Source: Escherichia phage ZCEC14
DNA length: 64,000 bases
Direction: 5' to 3' (one strand)
Sequence record: OP168898.1
Shown: one piece after another, positions 30,020 to 36,424 of the stretch
Layout: every line of letters starts with the position of its first letter
How positions within the stretch are numbered: position 1 is the first letter of the stretch
Notes under the pieces: model-generated
The model's database searches: none
The model's input: only the letters and a program-made list of their open reading frames with translations
What the model was told of the DNA's origin: nothing
Program-made: the position numbers and the translations under genes

Positions 30020-30511
30020 TTATTCCCAATAATCGAGAGCAAGAGTTACTTCAAAGGTTTGGATTTCATTGTTTGAATCCCAATCTAATTGAAGTTCACC
30101 CACGTTAGTAGGCCACAGACCTTTAATTTCAATTTCTTTTGTTACTGTTTTAGCGTCACGAGCATATTGACGAACGATAGCGCTCTTTTTATACTCTGCA
30201 GGTTTTCCACCAGTAATTTCGTTTCCTTGCCCCGCAGCAATGCTTTGCCAATCAACAAACTTCTGGCGAGCATCATGTGCCTCATCGTTCATTACTGTAA
30301 CAGTCCAGTCATCGAATGTACGATCGCCTGCTACGTTAATTTTACGATTCATAAATCCGACTGGAATTTTTTCTACAATACCAGCTGGTAGAGCAGTAGC
30401 TTTACATTGGAATGTAAAATTTTGTCCAAGATAAGAAATTTCTACTTGGAATAAGTTAGGTCGAGCAAAATCACCAGATTCAAACGCTCGTGTTACATCA
30501 TCTACAAACAT
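30020..30511 (-). CDS. 19: Tail tube protein gp19-like (163 aa)
   Basis: Length and synteny. Confidence 0.9.
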   Translation of the reverse strand: MFVDDVTRAFESGDFARPNLFQVEISYLGQNFTFQCKATALPAGIVEKIPVGFMNRKINVAGDRTFDDWTVTVMNDEAHDARQKFVDWQSIAAGQGNEITGGKPAEYKKSAIVRQYARDAKTVTKEIEIKGLWPTNVGELQLDWDSNNEIQTFEVTLALDYWE

Positions 30512-30525
30512 ATTAGCCTCTGTAG

Positions 30526-30533
30526 TATTTATA
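30526..30533 (-). promoter_or_regulatory. Late promoter TATAAATA (minus) upstream of gene 19
   Basis: tatttata on + strand 15 nt upstream of start. Confidence 0.5.
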
Positions 30534-30584
30534 TCCCTATGTTTAACCTAGGGCATATAGAATTAAAGAATTAAGGATATAGTG

Positions 30585-30592
30585 TATTTATA
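30585..30592 (-). promoter_or_regulatory. Second TATAAATA (minus) about 60 nt upstream of the first
   Basis: gtgtatttatatgg vs agtatttatatccc. Confidence 0.4.
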
Positions 30593-30593
30593 T

Positions 30594-30611
30594 GGCCTGC
30601 CGAAACAGGCC
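30594..30611 (-). terminator. Hairpin ggcctg-ccgaaa-caggcc downstream of HNH ORF
   Basis: Inverted repeat in sequence. Confidence 0.45.
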
Positions 30612-30618
30612 TTTAGAA

Positions 30619-31275
30619 TCATTCTAGTAAATCCCAAAGATCTACACTATTTCTTTTTGATTTTTCTCGGTTAGATTCCCAAGTGATTATTTCTAAATTA
30701 TTAATACCGCCAATTATTTCAGCAGGAATTAAATTATCAAAACCGTATTTGATAGATACCTTATGATCAAGTTGGTAAGCACCTTTTGTACCGCACACTC
30801 CTATTTTATCAGCATTTGGCCATTTTGACCAAATTTTCTTATGCTTACGAGTTTCTTTATATACCAATGAAATATATTCACGCATTTCAGATTTATTTGG
30901 GTTCCATCTTGGATGATTTACGCCATGCATACATTCTACTGTTTTTCCTTTATTCGCGGAACCATATGAATTATTGCGCATTTTATCTTTATGACGGCAA
31001 TCACGACAAATATCAGTGTTTCTTCCAATGCGTTGGTTATATTCAATTCCACATTTATCGCAACGGCATTTTACATACGCGGTACTACCTTTAATGTCTT
31101 CAACTTTAACATCAATTTCATAATACCTAAATCCATGTTTAACCGCTCCAAGAGGTGTTAATTTATAACCCTTTGATTGATAATGTTTAAAATTTGATGG
31201 TACAATTTTCACTTTAACAAACTTAGAAATAATCACTTGTTTCCTCGAGAATAGGGGCCGAAGCCCCATAATCAA
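30619..31275 (-). mobile_element. Free-standing HNH-family homing-endonuclease-like gene (218 aa) inserted between genes 18 and 19
   Basis: Cys cluster CRCDKCG...CRDCRH, HGVNHPRWNPN and LDHKVSIKYG...NLEIITWESNREK (HNH-like His/Asn); no gene at this position in T4 as I recall. Confidence 0.65.
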
Positions 31276-33255
31276 TTAACCTGCAAGACCAGTTAACTCA
31301 TCGAAGTCTGCACCAGTAGCAGTTGCGACGAAATTCAAAGTAATATAATTTATACTGCGCGCCGGTTGGATGTAGAATGTTGCAACAAACTCATTTCTAT
31401 CAATTACTGACGGAGTGTTATTTGTTGTATCGCAAACTACACGATATTCATAAATTCCACCGAGAGCTTTAATTCCCTGTAAGTACTGGGCAGTTTCTGT
31501 GCGGAATGATGAACGAGTAAACGCGTTGTTTAATTCGAACAAACGATATTTTGAACTACGTCCGATATTTGTTTTCAACATATTAAACAGACGACGAACG
31601 TTAATACGATCAAACGGAGAAGGAACAGAAGTAGCTGTTTTATCACCATACAATACGTAACCATCGCCACCTGTACCAGTTACCGGGTTGATAGCTTCTT
31701 GGTATAAACGGTCGCGCTGAGCCTGGCGAGTTTCAATAGCAAGTTTAATAACGTTAAGAATCTGGCCACGATTATAACCAGCTGGAGACATCCAAGTCTG
31801 AGATACGTTATCAGTTCTTGCGCATAAACCAGCAATATCAGCTGCTAATGGAACCCAACGATTCACATCATTATATTTGTCATACTGATACTTGTAGTTA
31901 CCATCAATTGCTGCGTAGGTTGAACTGATATTAAAGTTATTATCAGTGTATGAACCTGCAGCAGTTCTCCAATTGACTAAGTTATCAACAGCACGAGTTA
32001 CAGGAATTCCAACCACAGTTTCACGCGGAGGAGAGCACAATACTAAGCAATCTTGACGAGCATCTCCGATTGAAACGACGTGTTTTTGGACAGTAGATGC
32101 TGTTTCTAAAGATTCACCGGCACAAGAACCCGCAATAAACAACTGAACATCAACAGATTCGCGGTCAGCAAAGAAGTCCCAAGCTTCCATCAAATCTCCT
32201 GCTGTTACTTCAGCATTTGATGATAATCCACCAGACAGAGTTAAAATTCCAGAGAAGCCTTCTGGCCAGTTTTGTGCAGTTGCAAAAATATATTCTGAAC
32301 CACCTTTTGCGAAAAAGTCATCGATATAGATGTTACTATCGTAAATATCTTTTTCACCACGCTTAGTTGAAAGAACAACGCTTTGAACAATAGCATCATT
32401 ACGACGAACTATAATAGCGTACTGTGAATCAGTTTGCGGTCCATATCCAAACACTGCTTTGGCAGTAGATGCACGAGTACCACCACCTGGATAAATTGGG
32501 AGTAATGCAGAAGCTCCTTTTGCATAGTCAGCTTTAGATACGATTTCAATTTCAATTTTATCGCCTAATTCGCCTGGATAAAGAGCTACTACTCCTGGAA
32601 TTCCGTATTTTTCGAGATTTGCTTGAAAGTCAACCGCTGTCATAGCAGCTTCAGCATTTTCAATTTCAGCTAATAAAATACCAGAATCAGTAATAATTTT
32701 TCCAAGAGTTATTACTGCAGCTAAACCAGAGGAAGACGAAGAAATTTCCGCAGTCCAGTTAGAACCTAATTCCGGATATTCACCGACTTCTTTAGCTTTA
32801 GCGATAATTTTTGCAGTAGGAATATTAATTTTCTTAATTTTTCCATCTGCGTCTACTTCAGTAATTTTACCTTCAGTTTCAATATCATCTGAAACATATT
32901 TGACCGTGATTTTATCTCCAACCTCGTAGTTACTACCTGGGGTAGAAATTGTGTATTCAATATTACCAGCGATTGGTGATGAGTTTTTAGCGGTATCTCT
33001 ATCAACAGCACGAACTACTCGTAAGTCATTTCCGTACTGCAAGAAATTCATCGCAGACATAAAATAGTCAGCAGTTTCAGCGGTTGGTTGACCAAAAGTA
33101 TTAACTAAATCTACTTCATTTGTAACCTGTTTAATCTGAAAAGCAGGACCCCACTGGAATTTACCGGCCAAAGCTGCTGTACCAGTAGAGTTATTAACCA
33201 CGGTGCTTTGAACCGTAGTTTCTTTGAGCTCAATGCCCGGAGATAATAAAGTCAT
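31276..33255 (-). CDS. 18: Tail sheath protein gp18-like (659 aa)
   Basis: Length and synteny. Confidence 0.9.
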   Translation of the reverse strand: MTLLSPGIELKETTVQSTVVNNSTGTAALAGKFQWGPAFQIKQVTNEVDLVNTFGQPTAETADYFMSAMNFLQYGNDLRVVRAVDRDTAKNSSPIAGNIEYTISTPGSNYEVGDKITVKYVSDDIETEGKITEVDADGKIKKINIPTAKIIAKAKEVGEYPELGSNWTAEISSSSSGLAAVITLGKIITDSGILLAEIENAEAAMTAVDFQANLEKYGIPGVVALYPGELGDKIEIEIVSKADYAKGASALLPIYPGGGTRASTAKAVFGYGPQTDSQYAIIVRRNDAIVQSVVLSTKRGEKDIYDSNIYIDDFFAKGGSEYIFATAQNWPEGFSGILTLSGGLSSNAEVTAGDLMEAWDFFADRESVDVQLFIAGSCAGESLETASTVQKHVVSIGDARQDCLVLCSPPRETVVGIPVTRAVDNLVNWRTAAGSYTDNNFNISSTYAAIDGNYKYQYDKYNDVNRWVPLAADIAGLCARTDNVSQTWMSPAGYNRGQILNVIKLAIETRQAQRDRLYQEAINPVTGTGGDGYVLYGDKTATSVPSPFDRINVRRLFNMLKTNIGRSSKYRLFELNNAFTRSSFRTETAQYLQGIKALGGIYEYRVVCDTTNNTPSVIDRNEFVATFYIQPARSINYITLNFVATATGADFDELTGLAG

Positions 33256-33283
33256 TTTTAATCCTCTTTAATATGCTTTAATA

Positions 33284-36424
<3,141 letters not shown>

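Follow-up and report, generated by a model that had tools for sequence, protein, structure and literature searches.

Between the tail sheath gene (gene 18) and the tail tube gene (gene 19) of Escherichia phage ZCEC14, within a stretch of 64,000 nucleotides of sequence record OP168898.1 (hereafter 'the window'), a 655-bp cassette at positions 30620..31274 of the minus strand carries an open reading frame (ORF) that some close relatives of the phage possess and others lack. Analyses of that cassette indicated that it probably represents a homing endonuclease gene of the free-standing kind, and that it would belong to an uncharacterised HNH (H-N-N) family specialised on a site just downstream of the myovirus sheath gene. 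A selfish nuclease gene, as this most likely is, would be an ordinary element in T4-like phages, although members of the family follow the sheath gene in very distant phages as well. An initial annotation, made from the sequence alone, had placed an HNH endonuclease gene at this junction, with its start codon in a hairpin and with a pair of late promoters as a possible footprint of the insertion; the optional nuclease gene between genes 18 and 19 stands, and the regulatory and footprint readings do not.

The host phage of the region is T4-like and belongs to the genus Tequatrovirus (98.9% identity to HY03 and 98.7% to RB3), and its genes run along the minus strand in the order gp17 (33287-35119), gp18 (the tail sheath, 31276..33255, assigned from the ORF list and its similarity to T4 gp18), the extra ORF, gp19 (the tail tube, 30020-30511) and gp20. 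The ORF was found where it had been claimed, on the minus strand at 30619-31275 (218 aa if counted from a TTG), and the short intergenic region that had been stated for T4 at this point was confirmed, as a spacer of 116 nt alone separates genes 18 and 19 in that phage. The boundaries of the cassette were determined by aligning the T4 spacer with 25 Tequatrovirus junctions (the window and 24 further ones), for which GenBank records were used instead of an IMG/VR scan with gp19 that gave just 15 loci. In this alignment the cassette stands in place of 7 nt (ACGGTGC) of the T4-type spacer, with its left edge 1 nt past the gp18 TAA and its right edge within the TGA stop of the ORF itself. The spacer measures 116 nt at empty sites, 762-765 nt in carriers of the type seen in the window (the RB3 type) and 752 nt in carriers of a second, T6-type allele; the junctions were the same in all 13 carriers sampled, and the 116-nt spacer was intact in all 12 of the empty sites.

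Approximately 117 of some 519 closely related Tequatrovirus records carry a cassette (about 47 of the RB3 type and about 70 of the T6 type), while about 400, T4 included, keep the 116-nt gap, and T2 is likewise among the phages without the gene. Comparison with these insert-less relatives thus revealed a precise, optional cassette, and the contrary case, in which all relatives carry the gene at the same site, did not hold; presence or absence at one precise site among close relatives is the pattern by which a homing gene is recognised. The ORF is therefore real and an insertion. A tblastn search placed it once per genome (240 places in 239 records), and no paralogue of it was found elsewhere in the window. 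Its G+C content (32%, versus 36-39% in the neighbouring genes) was uninformative. The gene is under purifying selection (a ratio of nonsynonymous to synonymous divergence, dN/dS, of 0.10-0.16, versus 0.01-0.05 for gp18 and gp19) and was intact in all 12 copies sampled, which speaks for a functional gene.

Outside of these close relatives, full-length homologues of the protein were found directly after the sheath gene in all 16 of the phage and metagenome contexts that were checked. These comprise Tequatrovirus (with two alleles), Salmonella phage S16, Acinetobacter phage Acj61, Bp7, AS-zj and phiM12, together with an IMG/VR locus (L019) and eight metagenomic ones (L041, L043, L044, L045, L049, L050, L051 and L052), one of which encodes a sheath protein of 1307 aa. 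The occurrence of the gene is nonetheless sporadic, and other sheath-tube loci (L014-L016, L018 and L020-L024) are without it. More distant relatives keep the nuclease domain only, joined to other N-termini (DUF7487, NUMOD3) and encoded at different loci, frequently by a solitary gene of opposite strand; in two metagenomic examples, at L046 4001-5356 and L047 2275-3039, the same nuclease domain is fused to DUF7487 N-termini in genes of opposite strand that lie away from sheath genes. Judged by sequence, the nuclease domain is a widely shared module, and the pattern is the modular one of homing endonucleases, whose site is determined by the DNA-binding module. In the metagenomic locus L052, a second, partial copy of the C-terminal nuclease domain (positions 1262-1423; 50% identical to residues 152-205 of the window protein) lies right after the full-length gene, and may be left over from an element that occupied the site previously.

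The two Tequatrovirus alleles differ in a manner that follows the domain organisation of the protein. Over their first 62 nt, which take in the leader, the hairpin and seven initial codons, the RB3-type and T6-type cassettes do not differ, and the last ~225 nt, which encode the nuclease domain, are ~90% identical; the intervening ~380 nt, which encode the N-terminal module, are essentially unalignable. A direct comparison of window positions 30846-31212 with positions 1501-2106 of the T6 locus (L004) likewise found putative DNA-binding modules that are unrelated in sequence. The alleles are chimeric, and the difference between them looks like a natural domain swap at a single locus. In pairwise comparisons, the N-terminal module of the window protein is 34% identical to that of T6, 58% to that of S16 and 46% to that of Acj61, and it is therefore nearer to modules from other genera than to the T6 allele of its own genus. 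As far as pairwise identities can indicate, the history of the gene is thus incongruent with the relatedness of the phages, as horizontal movement predicts.

The nuclease assignment was derived from several lines of evidence that involve the C-terminal 100 residues of the protein (residue numbers follow the 205-aa form, for which the start codon is described below). That region reads YQLDH-x2-S-x3-G-F...NL-x5-W-x2-N-x2-K, in the shape of a classical HNH motif, and its core (D157-H158 ... N180-L181 ... N189 ... K192, encoded at 30661..30768 of the minus strand) corresponds to an HNH-like (H-N-N) ββα-metal domain. Three alignments (A1, A2 and A3, of 27, 45 and 40 sequences, respectively), sampled from the 6259 clusters that make up the family at E <= 1e-3, show D157, H158, N180, N189 and K192 to be invariant. 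An AlphaFold model (with predicted local distance difference test scores of 84 for the whole protein and 91 for a model of the domain) positioned the D-H pair where one strand ends, N180 where the next begins and N189 on the helix that follows, so that the predicted models display a ββα fold that can be superposed on those of known HNH enzymes. The best structural matches of the C-terminal domain were Geobacter Gme HNH (4h9d), phage GVE2 HNH (5h0o), the Cas9 HNH domain and T5 SciA, with which the D-H...N...N catalytic positions align. The protein differs from the small HNH enzymes in having two short helices inserted between the β-strands and in being without a CxxC...CxxC zinc site in the HNH core; furthermore, GVE2 HNH works with terminase, and there is no such indication for the window protein.

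Searches with sequence profiles were less generous. Pfam and NCBIfam scans assigned no HNH family to the protein or to its 26 closest relatives, a Foldseek search against the PDB found nothing, and the protein matches PHROG 5104, which is labelled 'unknown function'. A search of PDB sequences with a full-length profile gave zinc-finger noise only, and the same search with a profile of the domain gave spurious leucine-rich-repeat matches (from an IGxLxNLQxL pattern) and the Cas9 HNH domain, which was aligned over the D-H/N/N positions at E = 0.17. In distant relatives, the same stretch gave sub-threshold matches to PF13395 (HNH_4; 3.5e-4) and PF01844 (HNH; 3e-3 and 0.028). The initial annotation had named an HNH profile match beforehand as a test of its own proposal, and since none of the Pfam or NCBIfam HNH profiles reaches threshold, that sequence-profile test goes against it; its claim of an HNH endonuclease is nevertheless favoured, in the form of a divergent HNH domain, by the motif, the fold and the sub-threshold matches. 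Sequence and models together make an HNH/ββα-Me nuclease of the H-N-N type the most likely identity of the C-terminal domain. Both of the HNH-like motifs that had been pointed out (HGVNHPRWNPN and LDHKVSIKYG...NLEIITWESN) are present, although the former, while conserved, is not the catalytic HNH motif.

The cysteine cluster that had been noted is likewise present (C57, C59 and C62 ... C77 and C80; 30997..31068, minus strand), and lies within the N-terminal module (residues 1 to ~100), a putative DNA-binding module. Alignment and weak profile matches, to DUF4379 (treble-clef) and to zinc-ribbon families, suggest a zinc ribbon or treble clef, and C59, C62 and C77 (CxxC...C) were invariant across 27 homologues.

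Searches of the literature turned up no account of this ORF. The cassette resembles several elements that have been characterised in related phages. The mobA-E (HNH) and segA-G (GIY-YIG) genes of T-even phages are likewise small, optional ORFs between conserved genes with a patchy occurrence among close relatives, they display a modular design of nuclease and DNA-binding parts, and their flanks are linked to the element in the way that co-conversion predicts, as may be true of the cassette as well; like the cassette, they are promoter-less and depend upon upstream phage promoters, and seven free-standing endonuclease genes of T4 are promoter-less cassettes (PMC2988022). The cassette protein differs from the Mob proteins in the order of its domains, which is reversed (that is, the DNA-binding module is N-terminal and the nuclease domain C-terminal), and from Mob and Seg proteins alike in falling outside Pfam and NCBIfam, in its 'unknown function' label and in a nuclease activity that is putative. 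No resemblance in sequence to the mob genes or I-TevIII was detected, and tblastn with it gave a single place in each genome, including those of RB3 and T6, both of which carry mob-like genes (PMC2993671). Membership of the Mob / I-HmuI-type HNH homing family was ruled out on account of that single tblastn place, the lack of any HNH_3 or NUMOD match and the reversed domain order.

Two further types of ββα-Me enzyme were considered and rejected. The F-CphI family of Endo VII-motif proteins, a free-standing ββα-Me homing family of T4-type phages that is recognised by remote homology only (PMC6083498), differs in its DHDH and CX2C Endo VII motif and its psbA target (PMC6083498), and its member in phage VR7 is gp6 rather than the ORF at the 18/19 junction. 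The terminase-associated HNH proteins of cos phages were set aside because the 2-kb sheath gene separates the ORF from gp17, and because the ORF is absent from ~78% of close relatives, including T4.

Examination of the 5' end of the gene indicated that translation begins beyond the hairpin, and not within it. Three observations identify the start: (i) the GTG at 31234-31236 is the annotated start in the RB3, HY03 and PST records; (ii) the PHROG 5104 alignment begins at residue 14 of the 218-aa ORF, which is the GTG codon at 31236; and (iii) all 27 aligned homologues start with MI(I/T) at the equivalent codon. A Shine-Dalgarno sequence read from the window (GAGGAAA, 31240..31246, minus strand), the AGGA core of which lies 5 nt before the GTG, is kept as GAGGAAA or GAGGAAT in all carriers. 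The upstream ATG (31269-31267) has no Shine-Dalgarno sequence before it and is not conserved: in phiC600P9 it reads AAG and a leader 1 nt shorter puts the TTG out of frame, with the ORF intact from the GTG, and in ECp13 a frame-breaking indel lies between the ATG and the GTG. The conserved GTG and Shine-Dalgarno sequence, the homologue starts and the non-conserved ATG together lead to a protein of 205 aa, and sequence comparison thus assigns the start of the gene (30619..31236, minus strand, with a TGA stop) to the GTG at 31236, not to the ATG adjoining the hairpin.

The hairpin itself (GGGGC-UUCG-GCCCC, at the 5' end of the cassette) was recovered in both the minimum free energy and the centroid fold, at 31254..31267 of the minus strand, just after gene 18 as had been described. 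It starts 9 nt past the gp18 stop and ends 7 nt upstream of the Shine-Dalgarno sequence. Of the ATG that had been thought to lie within it, the G alone belongs to the structure, as the first stem base, and the ribosome-binding sequence and the GTG are both unpaired in the fold, at 7-18 nt downstream of the stem. A terminator scan does not call the hairpin because it is without a T-run; one GenBank record (G2133) labels it a putative terminator. A GC-rich hairpin also follows the sheath gene in each of the six other carrier lineages that were folded (S16, Acj61, Bp7, AS-zj, phiM12 and L019), and the empty site of T4 has its own, native hairpin after gene 18. The hairpin of the cassette probably acts as a stabiliser of the gene 18 3' end or as a weak terminator, and in doing so probably limits read-through into the ORF; the cassette would bring a hairpin of its own because its insertion moves the native one 650 nt downstream. 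A comparable arrangement is found in seg43(25) of Aeromonas phage 25, in which a very stable hairpin lies just upstream of a ribosome-binding site that it does not sequester (PMC2988022), although that gene encodes a GIY-YIG, segD-like enzyme and is located at the gene 43 locus. In the Acj61 locus (L006, 1457-1487), the hairpin between the sheath and nuclease genes has an 11-bp stem and a TATAAATA box in its loop, and could be a genuine promoter-in-hairpin arrangement, unlike that of the window.

On the other side of the cassette, the remnant of the native 18-19 spacer (30512..30618, minus strand) contains a hairpin (GGCCTG-TTTCGG-CAGGCC, 30594-30611), two late-promoter boxes and then the Shine-Dalgarno sequence and ATG of gp19. 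The two TATAAATA boxes, at 30585-30592 and 30526-30533, are present as had been claimed and lie 59 nt apart. The suggestion that the pair is an insertion footprint was not borne out: both TATAAATA copies and the GGCCTGTTTCGGCAGGCC hairpin already occur in the uninterrupted T4 spacer and are therefore native, and the remnant is base-for-base the same as the T4 spacer from ATTCTAAAGG onward, as it is in all 12 of the empty-site phages sampled. From 30593 to 33283, and thus throughout the cassette, there is no TATAAATA, and the gene 18 late promoter (TATAAATA at 33284-33291) is the closest one from which the cassette could be transcribed. In the window as a whole, TATAAATA occurs in 22 copies where 9.3 are expected, mostly on the minus strand just upstream of late genes, an excess that is consistent with T4-type late promoters across the window.

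A synonymous island in the 3' region of gene 18 is linked to the cassette. It spans 34 nt (31327..31360, minus strand), 52-85 nt upstream of the insertion, and covers the gp18 codons for P-A-R-S-I-N-Y-I-T-L-N-F-V-A (PARSINYITLNFVA), which encode the C-terminal sheath peptide that is best conserved among the phages that were compared. All 11 of its mismatches to T4 are synonymous, and no other stretch of 34 nt in the 9.7 kb aligned is as divergent (the runner-up has 8 mismatches, and the mean divergence is 2.3%). Three haplotypes of the island are found in Tequatrovirus. Haplotype A is the T4 type; haplotype B is found in all six of the sampled RB3-type carriers, and also in the empty-site phages T2, GiZh, PEC04 and AREG1; and haplotype C is found in all four sampled T6-type carriers, with a C-like block in two empty-site IMG/VR contigs. 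The haplotype therefore tracks the type of cassette in 10 of 10 sampled carriers, and 4-6 empty phages hold carrier haplotypes, while the sequence that flanks the island is either shuffled or invariant relative to the presence of the cassette. The island is a candidate for either a tract of co-conversion or a target site that has been recoded. A codon signature across genera (a T at the wobble position of the Tyr/Phe codon in 11 of 13 carrier and 5 of 13 empty lineages) was not used as evidence, being weak and drawn from lineages that are not independent of one another.

Together, these features suggest a mechanism in which the gene would be transcribed late and at a low level, by read-through from the gene 18 late promoter past the hairpin, and weakly translated from its GTG. 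The hairpin most likely substitutes for the displaced native hairpin that follows gene 18 and holds expression of the nuclease low, without serving as a gate upon the start codon. In a mixed infection, the enzyme would bind through its N-terminal module and nick or cut the cassette-less 18/19 region of a co-infecting phage, the likely target being in or beside the highly conserved 3' end of gene 18, and the cassette, with a short flanking stretch of gene 18, would subsequently be copied in by recombinational repair from the genome of the carrier. In this mechanism, we infer all of cleavage, its target and over-transmission of the cassette. A more specific form of this scheme, which we regard as speculative and rather doubtful, holds that the island (PARSINYITLNFVA) is itself the recognition or cleavage site of the enzyme, that the three haplotypes and the two alleles with swapped DNA-binding modules record an ongoing arms race, and that the nuclease family has tracked the 3' end of the sheath gene through the T4 superfamily and beyond, ferrying short pieces of that gene between genera.

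Several observations weigh against the homing reading. The synonymous divergence (dS) of the ORF within Tequatrovirus is 0.10-0.26, as large as in its flanks, which indicates an old resident of the genus and no recent invader; the constant place beside the sheath gene could also be due to vertical inheritance with repeated loss; and 3-4 of ~112 carriers (sb3, sb1, Ec_YwIITB1 and partly sb2), identified with a chimeric BLAST query, possess an intact RB3-type gene on haplotype A. The island is thus tightly linked to the cassette and yet not needed for carriage, and the idea that it is an obligatory immunity determinant was rejected as a strict rule, given those intact cassettes on the T4-type haplotype. 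An unlikely account of the first two observations is that the protein is an accessory nuclease resident in the tail module, vertically inherited and often lost, which works to the advantage of the phage (for instance through damage to host DNA or to that of competitor phages) rather than being selfish. Such an account is in keeping with the recurrence of the same post-sheath place across subfamilies and beyond the Straboviridae (phiM12 being an example), with the purifying selection on the gene at a dS equal to that of the flanks, and with the wide occurrence of intact copies. It sits poorly with the fact that just ~22% of near-identical Tequatrovirus genomes carry the gene, all with clean and identical junctions, with two alleles of unrelated N-terminal modules at one site in one genus (the RB3-type module being nearer to other genera), with a linked island of divergence beside that site, and with the tandem relic of a second copy in L052. 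The clean junctions, swapped alleles, island and relic fit invasion and replacement better than stable inheritance, and for this reason a free-standing homing endonuclease is preferred.

That preference supposes an active enzyme and a start codon free of the hairpin, and both suppositions have alternatives. It appears improbable that the protein has lost catalysis and is an HNH-like DNA-binding protein (such as a regulator of late tail genes), or else that it is a decaying relic: the five residues of its catalytic site do not vary across thousands of clusters, its dN/dS is ~0.1, and the Cas9 HNH domain aligns over the same D-H/N/N positions. Furthermore, H-N-N variants among known HNH enzymes are active. 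Less probable still is the regulatory model of the initial annotation, in which the gene would start at an ATG embedded in the hairpin and, as in an I-TevI-type gate, only transcripts without the 5' arm would be translated. The ATG does adjoin the stem, in frame, in this window, the equivalent hairpin of Acj61 has a TATAAATA box in its loop, and gating by a hairpin and a late promoter is known for I-TevI, I-TevII, I-TevIII, segB and mobE of Aeh1 (PMC2988022). Against it stand the loss of the ATG in phiC600P9, with an ORF that is nonetheless intact from the GTG, and the frame-breaking indel of ECp13; the GAGGAAA that precedes the GTG and not the ATG; the homologues, all of which begin at the codon equivalent to the GTG (as GTG or ATG); and a fold that leaves the Shine-Dalgarno sequence and GTG unpaired. 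Moreover, the cassette contains no TATAAATA, and hence no late promoter from which a hairpin-free transcript could arise. With the Shine-Dalgarno sequence (31240-31246) and the GTG outside the stem (31254-31267), and no TATAAATA at 30593-33283, a translational gate of the I-TevI type was ruled out.

Two oddities were encountered among the records that were compared. The Bp7 locus (L008, 3269-4630) has an extra ORF of 193 aa between gp19 and gp20 and a portal gene that its annotation splits in two, which may reflect another insertion or a sequencing frameshift. A 32-kb record, MG010123.1 ('Staphylococcus phage SAJK-IND'), is 98% identical to this region of a T4-like coliphage, and is probably mislabelled or contaminated.

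The cassette gene is a so far unannotated member of a well-known class of elements, and the features that take it slightly beyond the routine are the fidelity to the sheath site in very distant phages, the module-swapped alleles of T-even phages and the linked island of recoding. If the reading presented here is true, it adds an uncatalogued family of HNH homing endonucleases to the classical T-even system, and because T6 and RB3 possess the gene and T4 and T2 do not, crosses and cleavage assays are straightforward. It would allow the annotation of PHROG 5104 and of hundreds of 'hypothetical protein' entries between sheath and tube genes. In practice, the cassette marks the 18/19 junction as a place where therapeutic T4-like phages tolerate an insertion. 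The combination of one-site fidelity over very distant myoviruses with natural swaps of the N-terminal module would, in addition, offer a compact model for how specificity changes at a fixed locus.

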